A stretch of 32,590 bases of DNA from a virus (Duplodnaviria; Heunggongvirae; Uroviricota; Caudoviricetes): IMG/VR virus record IMGVR_UViG_2740892422_000012, one strand, 5' to 3'. This document shows, one piece after another, positions 1,057 through 8,814 of this stretch. The stretch's first letter is position 1; every line of letters begins with the position of its first letter. A model generated the notes under the pieces. It did no database searches. It was not told where the DNA came from and was given only the letters and a program-made list of their open reading frames with translations. The position numbers and the translations under genes are program-made.

Positions 1057-1359
1057 TTAACCAATTTTCCTTTCGGATGGGGGTAAATCCGTTGGCTCTT
1101 GCCCATAGTGTGCGAGAGCCGGAGCTATCTGCCCGGATTCAGGCGCAATTTTTCCAGTCATAAACCACAAGGCATATTTTTCGAACCGCGGGCAATTTAA
1201 GATTTTCATCATTACATCCCCTTTGGGTATGGATTCGCCAGTCTCATAACGCCATAGCGCGTTATGCGGAATACCTATTAACTCCGCAGCCTCATTGCGA
1301 CTTGTAATGCGCTCACTTTCACGCATTAGTTTTAGTTTTTCACCAATCTCCAAAATCAT
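1057..1359 (-). CDS. Immunity repressor, P2 C-like HTH protein
   Basis: ORF 1057..1386(-); segment VMMKILNCPRFEKYALWFMTGKIAPESGQIAPALAHYGQ closely resembles recalled P2 C repressor C-terminus; sits between int and a divergent cox-like gene as in P2. Start chosen at internal ATG 1359 (MILEIGEKL) with GGAG upstream; 1386 is an alternative. Confidence 0.75.
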   Translation of the reverse strand: MILEIGEKLKLMRESERITSRNEAAELIGIPHNALWRYETGESIPKGDVMMKILNCPRFEKYALWFMTGKIAPESGQIAPALAHYGQEPTDLPPSERKIG

Positions 1360-1453
1360 ATTGCATTCTCCAAATATGTAGTGCATTATGCAAACAATGA
1401 GTTGAACTATGGGGTAAATATCTCACCTATACCCCAAACAGGGAGATTATCAC
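1360..1453. promoter_or_regulatory. Divergent early promoter/operator region between repressor and cox-like gene
   Basis: 94-bp AT-rich gap between divergent genes; contains dyads TGCAT-T-ATGCA and GGGGTA-N13-TACCCC that could be operators. Position-based inference only. Confidence 0.45.
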
Positions 1454-2879: not shown

Positions 2880-3083
2880 ATGGCAATTAAGCATTTTCCC
2901 GTCGTTCGTTTCACTTCCAGAGGACGTGAATACGAGGTCGACGAACGCCTGATTACCACAATCGACAAACACCGTTCAGAACAGGATGCACATCACATCT
3001 ATCTCACTGACGGCACTTACTTCTGCGCCACGAATGTGGTGCAGGTGAACCTTATCCGACAGGTACAGGAGTCACGCAGATGA
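2880..3083 (+). CDS. Hypothetical early protein
   Basis: 67-aa ORF with strong RBS AAGGAGG 5-10 nt upstream of ATG. Confidence 0.6.
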   Translation: MAIKHFPVVRFTSRGREYEVDERLITTIDKHRSEQDAHHIYLTDGTYFCATNVVQVNLIRQVQESRR

Positions 3084-3325
3084 CCATTCTGGATTATATC
3101 GCTGCCAATCCGGGGTGTAGCGGTGGAGAAATCGCCGCAGCACTGAATACCCCAACCACAGCCATTAATGCGGAGTTACGCCGACTCTGGCGCAGCGGTT
3201 CAGTCATAAGAAAAGAGCGCAAAACAGGCGGTCGCTTTTCTTACCAGATAAACCCGATGCCGTTCGGGTGCGGCAATCCACTTACCAACATGTTTAACCA
3301 GCTACTGAAGGAAGCCAGAGCATGA
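3080..3325 (+). CDS. Small winged-helix-like DNA-binding protein (putative)
   Basis: 81-aa ORF, ATGA overlap with upstream gene; helical pattern AANPGCSGGEIAAALNTPTTAINAELRRLWRSG suggests an HTH fold. Confidence 0.5.
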   Translation: MTILDYIAANPGCSGGEIAAALNTPTTAINAELRRLWRSGSVIRKERKTGGRFSYQINPMPFGCGNPLTNMFNQLLKEARA

Positions 3326-4251
3326 GCGCCATCAACCACCAGGGATTACGCGAACTGGCAACTGACCTTCAACGAATGGCAACGCATCAAAAATTACTGG
3401 CGTTTCGCGCAATGCTCTCGCCGTCTGCTGTGCTGGCAATGCTGGATGAGCTGGAGCACGCCAGAACCACGGCTCCTGCCATTCGCCTGACACTCCATCA
3501 TGAAATTGCTGATTTCTGCGCGACGTTGGAGGCACCAGGCGAACCGGAAACGCCGGAAGCAATACAGCAAGAGCTGCTGCAACGCATTGACAAGGTTTTT
3601 GATTTTTTTTCTGAACCACTAAGAAACCAGAACATGCACACACAAAAAAACCGCTTGCCATGCCGTAATCAGTCAGGTTACATTTCCGCTGCACCTCATA
3701 AAACGGGTGCCGGGATTCTCAACCCGATACAGAGCAAAGCGCATAACCGCGCCAGCGGTTTTTTTGTGCGTACTGTATTGCCACGTCTTTTTCGCGTCAG
3801 AATTATGGCGGGGCGTACGGGGCCGACTTCGGTCGGGCCGGATTCTTTGCTCTCCGGTGTTGAGAACCCTGTACGTCTCGCCACCCCGAGATTCTCAACT
3901 CTGGATGGTGAGTTATTTCTATCACCGAGCAAAGAGGCCACACCATGGCAAACCGCAAACAGCACCGCGCATACGCTGCGCGTCGTCACATCCAGACTGA
4001 AATCAACCGCAGACTTTCCCGCGCATTCCGCGTCGCTAAAATCATGCACATCAATATGCTGCATGAGCGTAGCTGCGAACTTTCAAACCTCTATTCATCC
4101 GCTGTTTTCAGCTATCTGGCGGATGATCTGCGCGAGCTTCAGCAGCTCTTCCAGCAGCAAAACAAACCCCATTAATTCCTGTTCCGGGCCTTTCCTGCAC
4201 CTTGCGGCGGGAGGCCTTCGCACATCTGTAGTAAAGAGAATTGCAGCATGA
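3322..4251 (+). CDS. Hypothetical protein; only the N-terminal ~100 codons look protein-like, remainder of ORF is doubtful
   Basis: ORF 3322..4251 (309 codons) with GGAAG RBS. After about 3620 the translation becomes low-complexity (S/T/R/A-rich), crosses hairpins and a terminator-like structure, and overlaps the better-supported gene 3945..4175 in another frame. Confidence 0.3.
   Translation: MSAINHQGLRELATDLQRMATHQKLLAFRAMLSPSAVLAMLDELEHARTTAPAIRLTLHHEIADFCATLEAPGEPETPEAIQQELLQRIDKVFDFFSEPLRNQNMHTQKNRLPCRNQSGYISAAPHKTGAGILNPIQSKAHNRASGFFVRTVLPRLFRVRIMAGRTGPTSVGPDSLLSGVENPVRLATPRFSTLDGELFLSPSKEATPWQTANSTAHTLRVVTSRLKSTADFPAHSASLKSCTSICCMSVAANFQTSIHPLFSAIWRMICASFSSSSSSKTNPINSCSGPFLHLAAGGLRTSVVKRIAA
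3746..3766 (+). terminator. Candidate intrinsic terminator (short stem ACCGC/GCGGT, loop GCCA, then T7)
   Basis: Read directly: accgc gcca gcggt followed by ttttttt at 3759-3765. Lies inside the long ORF 3322..4251, which argues against that ORF being translated through here. Confidence 0.35.
3945..4175 (+). CDS. Small basic hypothetical protein (76 aa)
   Basis: AGAGG RBS 7 nt upstream of ATG; translation MANRKQHRAYAARRHIQTEINRRLSRAFRVAKIMHINMLHERS... is arginine-rich and helical. Confidence 0.5.
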   Translation: MANRKQHRAYAARRHIQTEINRRLSRAFRVAKIMHINMLHERSCELSNLYSSAVFSYLADDLRELQQLFQQQNKPH

Positions 4252-4637
4252 TTGACGCTCATGACTTCACAAGATGGGTGCGCACACAGGACACCCGTCT
4301 GGCTCCCGTTCTTCAGGGATTATTTGATCTCTACATCCGTGGTCGTGACAACAGAGCACGCACCACAAAACCGGAGAATGCAGACACCCTTTATTTCACA
4401 GTAGACGACTGCTACCGCGTGGACTTCACACCACACGGGCTGGCGTTGCACTGCCTGACACCACACGGCGAATCACTACTGGCGTATTACGACTCCCCGG
4501 CCTCCGTATTTGCGGCAATGCTGGCGCATCGCACTGCTGGCGGGTGTGCCTCGCTGAGTGAATACACCGCTGAATTTGACCGCCTTTCCGCCATCTTCTC
4601 GCAGGAGTGGCAGCGCGTGACGGGATACCAGCCATGA
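4248..4637 (+). CDS. Hypothetical protein (129 aa), translationally coupled to the replication gene
   Basis: ORF with stop overlapping the downstream ATG (ATGA at 4634-4637). Confidence 0.55.
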   Translation: MIDAHDFTRWVRTQDTRLAPVLQGLFDLYIRGRDNRARTTKPENADTLYFTVDDCYRVDFTPHGLALHCLTPHGESLLAYYDSPASVFAAMLAHRTAGGCASLSEYTAEFDRLSAIFSQEWQRVTGYQP

Positions 4638-7459
4638 GTGAGTTTGCATGGAGCTGGAATGAACCACGACCAGCCATTGATCCGGCCAGATTTACGGAGC
4701 GCAGGCAGGAAACTGAAACCGACTTGCAACGCGCCATCCGTTACTACCTTGAGGCGGACAAAAAGGCCCGGGAAGAACAGGAAGCGAAGGAGGAAGCCTT
4801 TTTCGCACAATCCGCCATGGGTAAAAAACTCATGGCATCCCTTGAGGAAGCCGGACAGCGTGAAAAGCTGGCACAGAGCATCATCAGTAAGCGCCGGGCA
4901 ACAGAACAAGACCCAGTAGCCCGTGCCTTTGCCACACTAAAGGCACTACCTGTTTATCTGCGTGAACCACTGAGCCGCCACCTCTCTTTCCTGCGCAAAA
5001 AACAGGAAGCCGATCGCCAGAAAGGCAAAAAGAGCTGGCAGGCGGAACGCTATGCACGCGGAACCCTGCGCAAAATATTCGAACGTCTAGATCGCACTGA
5101 CGGACGCTGGCTGACACCGGGTTATCGCTCCCTTGCCGGGCGCGAACGCCTGGACGATTTGCTTTACCTGCCGCAGCTCAACAAGCACCAGATACAGACG
5201 CTGGCCACCATGACCGCGGCGATGTTCAGCAGCACCTTCGAAACACTCTGCGATGGCTTTGGTGCCAGAGATGGCGAGCTGACCATGGATGTAATGTTGA
5301 AGGCTTACCGGATGCTGGCTCGTATCGCATTACGCCTGCACATCATGCCGCCACATTACGAAGCCCTGAACAAGAGCGAACCGGATACGGAACTGCTGCC
5401 GGGCGCAATCCTTCGCCTGACCTGTGCGGACTGGTGGAAACGCAAACTGTGGCTGTTACGTTGCGAGTGGAGAGAAGAACAACTCCGCGCCGCCTGTCTG
5501 GTTTCCAGAAAAACATCACCCTATCTGAGCCAGGACGCGTTAAGCGAGTTTCGCGCACAGCGCGAGAAAACACGCGATTTCCTGAAAAGTTTCATGCTGG
5601 AAAATGAAGACGGGTTCACGATTGATCTCGAGACGGTGTATTACGCGGGAGTAAGTAACCCGGTTCACCGTAAGGCAGAAATGATGGCCACCATGAAGGG
5701 ACTGGAACTTCTGGCCGAAGCCCGTGGCGACAGAGCGGTGTTTCTGACTGTCACCTGCCCGTCAAAATACCACGCAACAACGGAGAACGGTCATCCGAAT
5801 CCCAAATGGAACGGGGCCACCATGCGCGACTCCAGCGATTACCTGGTTAACACGTTTTTTGCGGCGGTCCGCAAGAAACTGAACCGCGACGGCCTGCGCT
5901 GGTATGGCATCCGCACGGTGGAGCCTCACCATGACGGCACCGTGCACTGGCATATGATGGTCTTTGCCCATCCGGAAGAAATCGACACCATTGTGTCCCA
6001 CACCCGCGATATTGCCATTCAGGAAGATCGTCACGAGCTGGGCGATGATATTACTCCGCGCTTTAAGGCGGAGTATGTAGACGGCTCAAAAGGCACGCCA
6101 ACCAGCTACATCGCCACCTACATCGGAAAGAACCTGGACAGCCGCGCCGTGGATGGCATCGACCCGAAAACAGGCAAACCACGCGTTGACCACGAAACCG
6201 GAAAATCAATGGCCGAGAGCGTGGAGCGCGCCATCGGCTGGGCGCGCCTTCACCGGGTCCGCCAGTTCCAGTTCTTTGGCATCCCATCCCGTCAGGTGTG
6301 GCGTGAACTGCGCCGCCTTGCCAGCCAGATGGCACGCAACCCGGAAGGCCCGCAACGGCTGAAGGATGACGCAATGGACGCGGTTCTTGCTGCCGCTGAT
6401 GCCGGATGTTTTGCCACCTACATTGAGAAACAGGGCGGCGTACTTGTTCCACGCAAAGACTACCTGATTCGCACCGCCTACGACCTCGCAGATGAGCTGA
6501 ACGATTACGGCGAACAGAGCGTACAGATTTACGGGATCTGGTCACCACTCATCGGGGAATCCTCCCGTGTGTGCACGCACCCGGATAACTGGAAGCTGGT
6601 AAGACGTAAACCGGAAGCGGAAGACAGCACCCGCGAAAATGGTTTTGACCTTCAGGGCGGCCCTGCCGCCCCTTGGACTCGTGGCAATAACTGTCCCCGT
6701 GTACAGGAAGCAGGCAACAGCGGGACAGAACTGTCGGAAGAGCAACCAACACCGTGGCCGCAGATCCCTGACGGCGTTGATGTGGATGAATGGATGCGCT
6801 CACTGAAACGGCACGAACGCCGGGCGCTGATGCGTTCGCTGCGTGACAAACAGGCAAAAAACAGCAGTGATGAAATGCAGAGCTGGACACAGAGCCGCAA
6901 ACAGCAGCGGCCTTTGCCTGATAACCACGAATTACTCGCTAAAGAATGGCGGGAGTCTGCCGAATCTCTCGGCCTGCATATCGGTGAACAGCAGATGCAG
7001 CACCTGTTACGGGGCGGCAGCCTGTACGTTGACGGCAGCATCATTGCACCGCAGGGATTTGAAATTGTACGCAAACCGGATACCCGCCCGGACAGCCGAA
7101 TCACGCAGCTCTGGCAGCGCCTGAGCCGTAATCATGGCGTAAGCAGCACGGAGATCCGCCATAACCCGGTCGCCAGCTATCTGACACAGCTGGGGGCATC
7201 AGACCCTGAAGCCGCCGCACGCCTGGCATCCACACTTCAGCAGGACCAGAACACCATGAAAACCCCCGTTACCGTGCTTTCTGACATGCTGCGCGCCATC
7301 CGTGACGCAGAGCACGCACAGAGAATCAGTGAAACAACTGAACGCGCCCGCCGCAAAGCAGACCTGCTGCGGGGTGGCCTGATCAGTGGAAACAAAAAAC
7401 AGACAGAAACGGGATTCACAAATCCCGTAAATGAGCAAAAAACGTGCCGCGATGTATGA
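4634..7459 (+). CDS. Rolling-circle replication initiator, HUH endonuclease (P2 gene A homolog)
   Basis: Contains the HUH motif VEPHHDGTVHWHMMVFAH; large protein in the position of P2 A. Start set at ATG 4634 (track start 4607 is GTG with RBS too close). About 941 aa, longer than the roughly 760 aa recalled for P2 A. Confidence 0.85.
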   Translation: MSEFAWSWNEPRPAIDPARFTERRQETETDLQRAIRYYLEADKKAREEQEAKEEAFFAQSAMGKKLMASLEEAGQREKLAQSIISKRRATEQDPVARAFATLKALPVYLREPLSRHLSFLRKKQEADRQKGKKSWQAERYARGTLRKIFERLDRTDGRWLTPGYRSLAGRERLDDLLYLPQLNKHQIQTLATMTAAMFSSTFETLCDGFGARDGELTMDVMLKAYRMLARIALRLHIMPPHYEALNKSEPDTELLPGAILRLTCADWWKRKLWLLRCEWREEQLRAACLVSRKTSPYLSQDALSEFRAQREKTRDFLKSFMLENEDGFTIDLETVYYAGVSNPVHRKAEMMATMKGLELLAEARGDRAVFLTVTCPSKYHATTENGHPNPKWNGATMRDSSDYLVNTFFAAVRKKLNRDGLRWYGIRTVEPHHDGTVHWHMMVFAHPEEIDTIVSHTRDIAIQEDRHELGDDITPRFKAEYVDGSKGTPTSYIATYIGKNLDSRAVDGIDPKTGKPRVDHETGKSMAESVERAIGWARLHRVRQFQFFGIPSRQVWRELRRLASQMARNPEGPQRLKDDAMDAVLAAADAGCFATYIEKQGGVLVPRKDYLIRTAYDLADELNDYGEQSVQIYGIWSPLIGESSRVCTHPDNWKLVRRKPEAEDSTRENGFDLQGGPAAPWTRGNNCPRVQEAGNSGTELSEEQPTPWPQIPDGVDVDEWMRSLKRHERRALMRSLRDKQAKNSSDEMQSWTQSRKQQRPLPDNHELLAKEWRESAESLGLHIGEQQMQHLLRGGSLYVDGSIIAPQGFEIVRKPDTRPDSRITQLWQRLSRNHGVSSTEIRHNPVASYLTQLGASDPEAAARLASTLQQDQNTMKTPVTVLSDMLRAIRDAEHAQRISETTERARRKADLLRGGLISGNKKQTETGFTNPVNEQKTCRDV

Positions 7460-7535: not shown

Positions 7536-8495
7536 ATGAAAATTTGTATCGACGACGGCTCCACCAACATCAAGCTGGCATGGACTGAGAACGGCGAACG
7601 CCGCAACGCCATCAGCCCGAACAGCTTCAAGTCGGAATGGTCTGCGCCGTTCGGTGGCTCGCAGCCTGCGAACTACATGCTTGATGGCGTGCGCTATGGT
7701 TTTGATCCGGTCAGCGATCGCTTTGTCCAGACGACCGACACGCAATACCAGTACAGCGATGTGAATGTCATTGCCATTCATCACGCGCTGGTCAAATCAG
7801 GCATCACGCCTCAGGAGGTGGATGTGGTTGTCACCCTGCCACTGAGCGAGTATTTCGACACAAACGCACAGCCAGACATGGCCAACATCAACCGCAAAAA
7901 AGCGAACGTTATGCGCCCGGTGGAGTACCAGAACGGCGAAGCATTCACTATCCGTAACGTGCGGGTTATGCCTGAATCCATTCCGGCTGGTTTTAAGGCA
8001 CTGGCTGACATGAGTCCGTTTGAATCCCTGCTGATTGTGGATTTGGGCGGAACCACGCTGGATGTGGCAAAGGTTCAGGGGCAACTGGCAGGTATCAGCC
8101 AGGTGTTTTGCGATCCACACGTAGGCGTTTCTCTGATGGCTGATGCCGTGCTGTCGGTGATGGCCACTAACGGTATGCGTACCAGTCACCACATCGCCAA
8201 TACCATTATTGAGCACCGTCACGATGAAGCCTGGCTACGCCAGCACATTCACAATGACGCGCATTACAACAGCCTGATGGCGGTTATTCGTGAAAAGGAG
8301 GAAACACTGAAACAACGCGTGATCCGCGCGCTGGCGGGTTTTTCGGGTTACGGGCGGGTGATGGTTGTAGGTGGAGGAGCGGAGATTGTGGCACCCGCTA
8401 TCCGCGAAGCCTGCGGAGTTAATGCGACTTTCATCGCGGACGGGGTGCCACAGTTTGCTCTGGTTAATGGGCTGTACGCAATGGACAAGGAGTAA
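7536..8495 (+). CDS. parM: ParM/StbA-family actin-like segregation ATPase
   Basis: Motifs IDDGSTNIKL, PNSFK, YSDVNVIAIHHAL, VDVVVTLPL, IVDLGGTTLD, VMVVGGGAEI align with recalled plasmid R1 ParM (StbA); AAGGAAAA RBS. Confidence 0.85.
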   Translation: MKICIDDGSTNIKLAWTENGERRNAISPNSFKSEWSAPFGGSQPANYMLDGVRYGFDPVSDRFVQTTDTQYQYSDVNVIAIHHALVKSGITPQEVDVVVTLPLSEYFDTNAQPDMANINRKKANVMRPVEYQNGEAFTIRNVRVMPESIPAGFKALADMSPFESLLIVDLGGTTLDVAKVQGQLAGISQVFCDPHVGVSLMADAVLSVMATNGMRTSHHIANTIIEHRHDEAWLRQHIHNDAHYNSLMAVIREKEETLKQRVIRALAGFSGYGRVMVVGGGAEIVAPAIREACGVNATFIADGVPQFALVNGLYAMDKE

Positions 8496-8499
8496 ATCA

Positions 8500-8814
8500 A
8501 TGACGACACCAACCAGACGGATAAGTTTCTATCTGAAGCCCGCCGTCGTCAAGAGCGAACGGGAGGCGTGCAGTTACCTCGACAGCCTGCCAGCCTCCGA
8601 ACGCAGCCGCGCACAACGCGCGGCTTTTCTGGCCGGACTGGCTCTTATAAAACGCATCCCCGCGTTGGCGTATTCGCTGGCAGAATGGTCAGAAGACGAA
8701 ATAAGGATGCCACCGCTACCAGTACAGCCTGAAAAACCGGCGAAACCAGCAGCAGACAGCGCCCCCCATATGCAGCAGGTGAAGAAGAATATTCAGGCGT
8801 TTTTTCCGAAGTGA
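8500..8814 (+). CDS. parR: ParR/StbB-like ribbon-helix-helix partition adaptor
   Basis: Start ATG 8500, 5 nt after parM stop. N-terminus MTTPTRRISFYLKPAV...LDSLPASERSRAQRAAFLAGLAL parallels recalled R1 ParR (RRTIAFKLNPDV...LDSIPQGERSRLNRAALTAGLAL). Confidence 0.8.
   Translation: MTTPTRRISFYLKPAVVKSEREACSYLDSLPASERSRAQRAAFLAGLALIKRIPALAYSLAEWSEDEIRMPPLPVQPEKPAKPAADSAPHMQQVKKNIQAFFPK

Follow-up and report, generated by a model that had tools for sequence, protein, structure and literature searches.

The 309-aa open reading frame at positions 3322 to 4251 of the window, the whole 32,590-nt stretch of viral DNA analysed here, covers an RNA immunity module of the P4/P1 type, in which two small RNAs silence an anti-repressor gene from within an eta-like ORF, and a run of eight T residues fuses the preceding 99-aa gene to that ORF; we put the probability of this reading at about 85%. 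The module is, judged by its sequence, homologous to that of satellite P4 and built like the immI region of P1. The window itself comes from a P88-like E. coli prophage (Xuanwuvirus, P2-family), of which it represents the early region. The gene order is integrase, C repressor (1057..1386, minus strand), cox, early genes and replication gene A, with the module placed ahead of gene A and after the early genes. The GpA-type replication endonuclease gene (4607..7459) is preceded by a 129-aa gene (4248..4637), the product of which showed no similarity to P4 ORF151. The latter gene and all of the ORFs, RNAs and sites described below lie on the + strand. A query of complete genomes matched 1423 of 5426, with partial coverage in most, and a search of genome contigs with the 76-aa protein encoded within the module gave only 3 loci; the useful set of homologues came from a search of the viral collection. 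In NCBIfam, neither the long ORF nor the 76-aa and 129-aa proteins had a match.

The initial annotation had described 3322..4251 as an ORF of 930 nt that may contain a small RNA or protein-binding regulatory element, or be a gene disrupted by an indel. The ORF, which begins with ATG, is present as described, and the results support both alternatives together. Its first part (3322..3619) is the body of an upstream early gene, which in relatives encodes a 99-aa protein (WP_032419531) with a weak Ead/Ea22-like match. The relatives' gene ends in DFFLNH, and its TAA stop codon corresponds to 3620..3622 of the window. The window has T8 at 3603..3610, whereas the relatives have T7, which was found in 82 of the 84 IMG/VR matches (T8 in the other 2), in 45 of 48 loci, and in the closest complete genomes. 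The extra T puts the 99-aa gene in frame with the ORF that follows and gives rise to the 309-aa ORF, which is an artefact composed of two neighbouring frames joined by a one-base indel.

The eighth T could itself be a homopolymer error of sequencing or assembly, in which case the real phage would possess a normal 99-aa gene and a separate eta-like ORF; we rate the odds of this as somewhat short of even. Apart from this base, the window is identical over 1561 bases to several complete genomes bearing T7. The other T8 cases (L008 and L010) have a T7 sibling (L007) that is otherwise identical to them over the compared segment, the 3'-terminal 120 bases of the upstream gene, and T8 is rare in IMG/VR as given above. 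However, runs of eight bases slip in vivo as well, and T8 is present in two different immunity lineages.

A search for RNA families identified two RNA genes downstream of the fusion point. The sequence at 3691..3765 matches the isrK/P4 seqA RNA family with 62.8 bits (RF01394; gathering score 50; model positions 1-77 of 77), and that at 3801..3888 matches C4, the family of the P4 CI-type antisense RNA, with 78.5 bits (RF01695; gathering score 45; model positions 1-87 of 87). The RNA regulatory element proposed earlier is found at 3691..3944, which consists of an isrK/seqA-type RNA, a C4/CI-type antisense RNA and a target leader. Weak Rfam matches to CRISPR-DR33, Ms_IGR-4 and c4-a1b1 (15.9 bits versus a gathering score of 46.7) were below threshold and were not used. 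A promoter-like site, TTGCCA-18-TACATT (3655..3684), matches at 9 of 12 positions and would place a transcription start near 3691; this block is conserved in all homologues regardless of the gene that lies upstream. The isrK-type RNA (fold z = -2.7) is composed of two hairpins, a single-stranded b1 segment and an intrinsic terminator. The latter had been recognized from the sequence as a terminator-like hairpin with T7 at 3746..3766, and consists of AACCGC-GCCA-GCGGTT at 3745..3760 with the T7 run at 3759..3765. The C4 RNA has a 17-bp closing stem, a UUCG hairpin and a hairpin presenting b', and its minimum-free-energy fold (-47.6 kcal/mol, z = -4.9) is the same as the model fold. The UUCG hairpin, CCGACTTCGGTCGG, had also been seen earlier, one base too low; it lies at 3823..3836. 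Among the homologues, the C4 helices were 99.7-100% paired with 5 pairs changed on both sides, and the RNA stems were 96% paired, also with 5 pairs changed on both sides, a result that none of 500 shuffles reached and that compares with 35-50% in slid controls. An acceptor-like stem followed by ACC (3881..3886) is visible in the C4 sequence; the mature RNA of this family is released from a longer transcript by RNase P.

The initial annotation listed three copies of GATTCTCAAC, which are the a1, a' and a2 sites of the module. Two of these copies are exact, at 3714..3723 (reported one base low) and 3890..3899, but the inverted copy at 3859..3868 has one mismatch; the 8-bp inverted repeat described for the last two copies is borne out by 8 contiguous complementary bases. 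The a1 target, UUCUCAAC (3716..3723), occupies the loop and 3' side of isrK hairpin 2, the antisense segment a', GUUGAGAA (3859..3866), is in a single-stranded junction of C4, and the a2 target, again UUCUCAAC (3892..3899), is in the leader of the 76-aa gene. We found a second complementary triple that had escaped notice. It is composed of b1, AGAGCAAAG (3731..3739), which is single-stranded in the isrK-type RNA, b', UCUUUGCUCU (3844..3853), in the loop of C4 hairpin 2, and b2, GAGCAAAGA (3927..3935), which overlaps the Shine-Dalgarno sequence AAGAGG (3932..3937) located 7 nt before the ATG (3945) of the 76-aa gene.

The number of GATTCTCAAC 10-mers alone is not beyond chance, as 18 of 100 shuffles equalled the 4 matches found with up to one mismatch. 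The arrangement of hairpins and repeats is far beyond chance, as judged by the Rfam scores, the fold z values and the covariation of the repeats. The a'/a2 and b'/b2 pairs were 94.4% paired, with 90 cells changed on both sides compared with 27 in shuffles and a covariation score of 0.667 (0.143 in shuffles). Pairing between a1 and a' and between b1 and b' amounted to 95.7%, with a covariation score of 0.681 (0.130 in shuffles). Both sets of sites co-vary in concert across 22 distinct homologues representing 18 C4 specificity types, and the mean duplex energy was -23.5 kcal/mol for cognate and -10.5 kcal/mol for non-cognate combinations.

The overlap of the long ORF with a 76-aa ORF in a different frame, as first reported, is seen at 3945..4175. 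The 76-aa protein is homologous to the 'derepression' (anti-repressor) protein epsilon of P4; it scored 29.4 bits against Pfam Derepression (PF25738; gathering score 27) and showed 33% identity to P4 epsilon over 51 aa in a pairwise BLASTP comparison (E = 5e-9). The pN/pS value in this frame was 0.29. By analogy with the known systems, the epsilon-like gene is probably the one regulated by the C4/CI-type RNA, and the position of b2 suggests that C4 pairing would mask its ribosome-binding site.

The second part of the fused ORF is an eta-like 'ash family' ORF of 205 codons (3634..4251). Its start lies upstream of the internal promoter, and the frame continues across both RNA genes and the whole of the epsilon-like gene, which is out of frame with it, to end in an ATGA overlap at the ATG (4248) of the 129-aa gene. 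The ORF shows no amino-acid constraint, since pN/pS was 1.06 over 3634..3942 and 1.18 in the overlap with the 76-aa gene, and diversity is flat over the three codon positions. Contrary to the initial annotation, the open frame over the RNA region is not accidental, as its openness is conserved. The ORF is intact in 80 of 86 loci, with the ATG 171-294 nt ahead of the C4 AUG across four different upstream contexts, only two of which are independent because three share a conserved block; in P88-type loci the ATG is located 3 nt further upstream. An in-frame stop was present in only one of 57 unique sequences, whereas each of the other frames has stops at 8-10 sites. About 5 stop-creating alleles were expected in the eta-like frame and 1 was seen, which is a statistically modest difference. 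Three combinations of indels keep the frame and three sequences break it. A 97-aa GTG-initiated ORF (3707..4000) in the second open + frame is not regarded as coding, since in other variants this frame is interrupted by stops at 8 sites. As in P4 eta, conservation extends to the openness of the eta-like ORF, to the position of its start ahead of the internal promoter and to its phase with respect to the two RNAs, and we conclude that what is maintained is the openness of the frame and not its sequence.

The connection between this ORF and P4 Eta rests on architecture and a Pfam profile and not on pairwise identity. Against Phage_ASH (PF10554) it gave 18.2 and 19.8 bits, which is below the gathering score of 26, whereas P4 Eta itself gave 82.2 bits with a domain covering exactly the P4 seqA and CI region; a direct BLASTP comparison of the ORF with P4 Eta returned noise only (E = 0.03). 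RefSeq records label this same DNA inconsistently, as 'ash family protein' or 'derepression protein'.

The P4 immunity region is made up of an eta/kil ORF that contains the promoter PLE, seqA and the CI RNA, followed by epsilon. The window shares with P4 the order of an eta ORF containing the isrK and C4 matches and then epsilon, the homology of the downstream gene to epsilon, an ORF of around 210 codons that starts upstream of an internal promoter, and antisense segments complementary to one upstream and one downstream site. The phase of the ORF relative to isrK position 1 and the C4 AUG is identical in the two, and the arrangement is kept in 80 of 86 loci. The P4 promoter is internal to eta, the translation of which prevents termination (PMC10111431). 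The window differs from P4 in that the module resides in a full P2-family phage and not in a satellite, the replication gene is of the GpA type and not the alpha primase, a kil-sized terminal ORF is absent, isrK and C4 lie 75 nt closer together, and the ORF falls under the Phage_ASH threshold. In addition, the downstream target site overlaps the epsilon-like gene's own ribosome-binding site, and the ORF continues out of frame to the following gene, whereas eta ends at the epsilon start.

The immI region of P1 and P7 (Citron and Schuster 1990, cited in PMC8201110) contains the c4 antisense RNA, the a1/b1 and a2/b2 sites, and icd-ant. The window resembles immI in its C4-family RNA with two antisense segments, each having an upstream and a downstream site, in having b2 on the ribosome-binding site of the leading gene of an anti-repressor operon, and in a specificity that changes when all copies change together, as is the case between P1 and P7. 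The differences are that the regulated protein is epsilon-like and not Icd/Ant, that an intrinsic terminator separates a1/b1 from c4, as with isrK and P4, and that the whole module is contained in a long ORF.

The transcription starts, RNA processing, translational block and anti-termination that we propose for the module are modelled on P4 and P1. The internal promoter near 3655..3684 would give rise to a transcript from near 3691, and the majority of transcripts would end at the terminator (3745..3765), producing an RNA of approximately 75 nt of the isrK/seqA type that carries a1 and b1; both promoter use and terminator efficiency are presumed here. Read-through transcripts would contain the C4/CI-type RNA, which would be cut out as a stable species. 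Its single-stranded a' and b' segments are predicted to base-pair with the leader of the 76-aa gene at a2 and b2, and because b2 overlaps the Shine-Dalgarno sequence, translation of the gene would be blocked. By analogy, the block would cause transcription towards gene A to end early. The a1/b1 copy may likewise pair with a' and b', whether in cis or in the form of a short decoy RNA. Since the eta-like ORF starts upstream of the internal promoter, only transcripts from an upstream lytic promoter could translate it. Ribosomes moving through the ORF would prevent the terminator and the antisense pairing from acting, and lytic transcripts, translated across the ORF, would then escape immunity.

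The a1/b1 copy may be activating or repressing, because the homologous IsrK of Gifsy-1 was shown experimentally to activate, and not repress, in trans (PMC4825925). In the isrK-orf45(STnc1160)-anrP segment of Gifsy-1, an isrK-type RNA with its own terminator and partial read-through is followed by STnc1160, a stable processed RNA and putative C4-type counterpart, and then by the anti-repressor gene; that study links IsrK to P4 seqA and STnc1160 to CI, and reports that orf45, with 45 codons between isrK and anrP, is translated and coupled to anrP (PMC4825925). The window may accordingly contain a module of this kind, in which the long transcript is silent through intramolecular pairing and the short isrK-type RNA opens it in trans for translation of an ORF from AUG 3805 and the coupled downstream genes. 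We consider this unlikely, at roughly one chance in four, as an account of the locus. The isrK match and the terminator agree with it, as does the AUG at 3805, at the 5' end of C4, which is invariant and lies in the conserved open frame; the ORF starting there would be the counterpart of orf45. However, the frame from 3805 has no stop near the anti-repressor start and continues for 148 codons (444 nt) to the next gene, unlike orf45, which ends near the start of the anti-repressor gene, and in two loci (L004 and L073) the AUG is outside the conserved frame. The overlap of b2 with the Shine-Dalgarno sequence favours direct repression by C4, as in P1. The output in Gifsy-1 is the antiterminator AntQ. 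Gifsy-1-like activation and C4 repression are compatible with each other.

Much less probable is that the T7 run produces the same fusion, and feeds ribosomes of the 99-aa gene into the eta-like frame, by a -1 ribosomal slip or transcriptional slippage. The T7 allele, GAU UUU UUU, does hold an in-phase U_UUU_UUU slippery heptamer. That the T run is conserved says nothing about programmed slippage, as the upstream gene shows hardly any variation over its entire 3' end. If slippage did occur, the T run would be a tunable entry point that sets the share of lytic transcripts translated across the module to the replication genes, and genomic T8 alleles would be locked-on variants. Least probable, and already contradicted by the tests in this analysis, is that the 309-aa ORF is one genuine protein to which the hairpins and repeats are incidental: the frame is open for 309 codons, its second part is open in 53 of 57 unique homologues and PGAP calls that part 'ash family protein' in relatives, but the T7 of relatives splits the frame into 99 aa and 205 aa, pN/pS is near 1 compared with 0.29 for the 76-aa gene, diversity is equal across codon positions, the variable positions co-vary as RNA duplexes and not as codons, and no homologue with a conserved 309-aa protein and coding-like substitutions was found, which was the refuting condition named in the initial annotation.

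With the P4/P1-type module as the preferred reading, annotation of the 309-aa ORF as a protein should be avoided; the real features of the region are the RNA genes and the epsilon-like gene of 76 aa. The locus leaves the known working of such immunity systems unchanged. It places a P4-type RNA immunity module with an epsilon-like anti-repressor in P2-like prophages of E. coli, within the early operon of a common family that is a plausible source or sink for the module of P4 satellites, and the occurrence of 18 specificity types in a small sample predicts many heteroimmune groups.

The initial annotation proposed that the 309-aa ORF (930 nt, 3322..4251, plus strand) might be a gene disrupted by an indel, and noted that it overlaps a 76-aa ORF (3945..4175) in another frame. 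The ORF listing confirmed both the ORF and the overlap, and comparison with the closest genomes located the indel: they differ from the window by a single base, having seven Ts (T7) rather than eight (T8) at 3603..3610. In the T7 version the upstream gene encodes 99 aa and ends at the TAA equivalent to 3620..3622, and RefSeq has a separate 205-aa "ash family protein" starting from the ATG equivalent to 3634; in other records the annotated product of the locus is instead the 76-aa "derepression protein". Both labels are found on the equivalent DNA of close relatives (the homologous loci L001 and L003, respectively). T7 was present in 45 of the fetched loci and T8 in 3, and the corresponding numbers among IMG/VR exact matches were 82 and 2. 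Every T8 sequence has a T7 sibling that matches it at all other positions in the 120 bases compared, those at the 3' end of the upstream gene; T8 has therefore either arisen by recent slippage or is an error in sequencing the homopolymer. We conclude that one extra base creates the 930-nt ORF by joining a small early gene to a frame, resembling the eta ORF of phage P4, that lies over a P4/P1-type RNA immunity module. The T8 allele is found in two distinct immunity lineages, one represented by the window and the other by L008 and L010. The T7 allele reads GAU UUU UUU, an in-phase U_UUU_UUU slippery heptamer (window 3601..3612), and a −1 slip there would give exactly the fusion protein encoded by the window's T8 allele.

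The suggestion that the segment contains an RNA regulatory element was supported by an Rfam search, which returned full-length matches above the gathering scores to isrK (RF01394; 3691..3765, 62.8 bits) and C4 antisense RNA (RF01695; 3801..3888, 78.5 bits). The C4 segment alone folds into the model structure (−47.6 kcal/mol, z = −4.9), and the isrK segment folds with z = −2.7. All of the features listed initially are present, although three of the coordinates had been given one base too low. The terminator-like hairpin followed by seven Ts (hairpin at 3745..3760) is the isrK terminator, and the UUCG hairpin CCGACTTCGGTCGG (3823..3836) is the first C4 hairpin. The three copies of GATTCTCAAC correspond to an upstream site, a1 (3714..3723), an antisense segment within C4, a' (3859..3868), and a downstream site, a2 (3890..3899); the two direct copies are exact, and the inverted copy, a', carries one mismatch. 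A second set, absent from the original list, comprises b1 (AGAGCAAAG, 3731..3739), b' (UCUUUGCUCU, 3844..3853, lying in the second hairpin loop of C4) and b2 (GAGCAAAGA, 3927..3935). b2 overlaps the AAGAGG Shine-Dalgarno sequence (3932..3937) of the 76-aa gene, the ATG of which is at 3945. TTGCCA-17-AATTAT, a second promoter-like site (3778..3806), immediately precedes C4 and has been conserved among homologues; transcription from it would be predicted to start within the C4 closing stem.

We fetched 83 loci, each encoding a relative of the 76-aa protein, and the RNA region was found immediately upstream of that gene in all 83. After L001-L003 had been added and loci short of upstream sequence dropped, 85 loci and the window gave 57 unique sequences; the pairing tests used an alignment of 23 sequences, with 22 distinct rows. 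Variation in the a and b sites is concerted across all three copies. For a'/a2 and b'/b2, 94.4% of cells were paired and 90 had changed on both sides, compared with 27 in shuffles (covariation score 0.667 versus 0.143); for a1/a' and b1/b', 95.7% were paired and 93 had changed on both sides (0.681 versus 0.130). Neither score was reached by any of 500 shuffles, and controls with slid partners gave just 24-53% pairing. Pairing in the intramolecular stems was 96%, and 5 of their pairs had changed on both sides. The a' segment falls into 6 types and the b' segment into 14, giving 18 C4 types when the two are combined. Antisense-target duplexes averaged −23.5 kcal/mol for cognate and −10.5 kcal/mol for non-cognate combinations, and a single non-cognate pair came within 2 kcal/mol of the cognate. 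Concerted change together with cognate preference is the signature of heteroimmune specificity, of the kind known for P1 and P7. Across L004-L086 the a and b types reassort, the same a occurring with different b and the reverse, and each type change requires concerted replacement at three separate places (3716..3739, 3844..3866 and 3892..3935). In L070 the second C4 hairpin carries 17 inserted nt (equivalent of window 3849), which create two tandem b'-bearing loops, one of the window type and the other matching its own b1/b2; this may be a two-specificity C4 or a recombination scar.

The impression that the segment does not look coding also held. Diversity across 3634..3944 was flat by codon position (0.119, 0.133, 0.107), and pN/pS of the long frame running from the ATG at 3634 was 1.06 in the RNA region and 1.18 in the overlap with the 76-aa gene. 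Judged by these values, the long frame is without amino-acid constraint. Across 3945..4175, diversity is highest at third positions of the 76-aa frame (0.047, 0.105, 0.048), which has a pN/pS of 0.29; we therefore regard the 76-aa gene as genuinely protein-coding. Its product scored 29.4 bits against Pfam Derepression (gathering score 27) and, over 51 aa, shares 33% identity with P4 epsilon. In L077 this epsilon-like gene has a premature TAG (equivalent of window 4155..4157), six codons short of the normal stop. The long frame is nevertheless open in 53 of the 57 unique sequences: its RNA region showed one in-frame stop versus about five stop-creating alleles expected, and the other two frames gain stops at 8 and 10 sites. 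The frame is kept by three indel combinations (+1/−1, +1/+2 and +3) and lost in three sequences. For 80 of the 86 loci, the frame has an ATG 171-294 nt 5' of the AUG at the C4 5' end, which places it before the conserved promoter block in each of the four upstream gene contexts, and in those 80 the frame stops 444 ± 3 nt past the C4 AUG, as an ATGA overlap with the next gene. This pattern argues that the openness is not accidental.

The window ORF fits the architecture of P4 eta. P4 eta (214 codons, 8812..8168, minus strand) is followed by epsilon and contains an isrK match (seqA, 60.8 bits) and a C4 match (CI, 74.9 bits); both RNAs are in the same codon phase in the two ORFs, and the AUG at the C4 5' end is in frame in each. 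Unlike P4 eta, the window ORF crosses the epsilon-like gene and stops at the following gene. P4 Eta scored 82 bits against Pfam Phage_ASH, the match coinciding exactly with its seqA-CI stretch (8330..8704, minus strand); this domain corresponds to the translated seqA-plus-CI RNA sequence of eta. The window ORF scored 18-20 bits over the equivalent 3679..3966, below the threshold of 26. In P4, a constitutive promoter is located within eta, and its transcripts end early through interactions of CI and seqA and are then processed to CI; full-length Eta is translated solely from a late promoter further upstream, and that translation keeps termination from occurring (PMC10111431). In Gifsy-1, a short IsrK RNA activates translation of orf45, just downstream of isrK (PMC4825925), and the AUG conserved at the C4 5' end suggests that orf45 may start in a C4-like region. 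Given this activation, a short RNA bearing a1/b1 may act against C4 instead of aiding it.

Several complete E. coli chromosomes match the region at 99.9% identity, and P88-like phages (genus Xuanwuvirus, P2-family group) match it at 88-95%. An integrase, a C-type repressor and a cox-like gene lie upstream; a 129-aa gene and a GpA-type replication endonuclease lie downstream. Used as a query, window 3080-4640 hit 1423 of the 5426 complete E. coli genomes; in 254 of them a single place covers at least 80% of it. Phage P88 itself (L002, 2054..3084 and 3203..3391) has an insert of about 1 kb between the Ea22-like gene and the RNA module, with genes for a membrane protein and for a product that the annotation calls "lipoprotein" and its note a serine protease, and the P88 RefSeq record lays a minus-strand hypothetical CDS, probably spurious, over the RNA genes. 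A contig labelled Vagococcus sp. (NZ_JBQPOM010000071.1) carries this enterobacterial prophage module, its 76-aa protein being 84% identical, and is probably contaminated or mislabelled.

The initial observation is confirmed, and a system of a known kind accounts for it fully. A literature search found no paper describing this RNA immunity module in P88-like phages, and we therefore count it as a further member of that kind. Transcription would be driven from a promoter-like sequence at 3655..3684 (9/12 match) and terminate in part at 3765; C4 would be released from read-through transcripts and would block translation of the epsilon-like gene, with polarity on gene A, and translation of the eta-like ORF would protect lytic transcripts.
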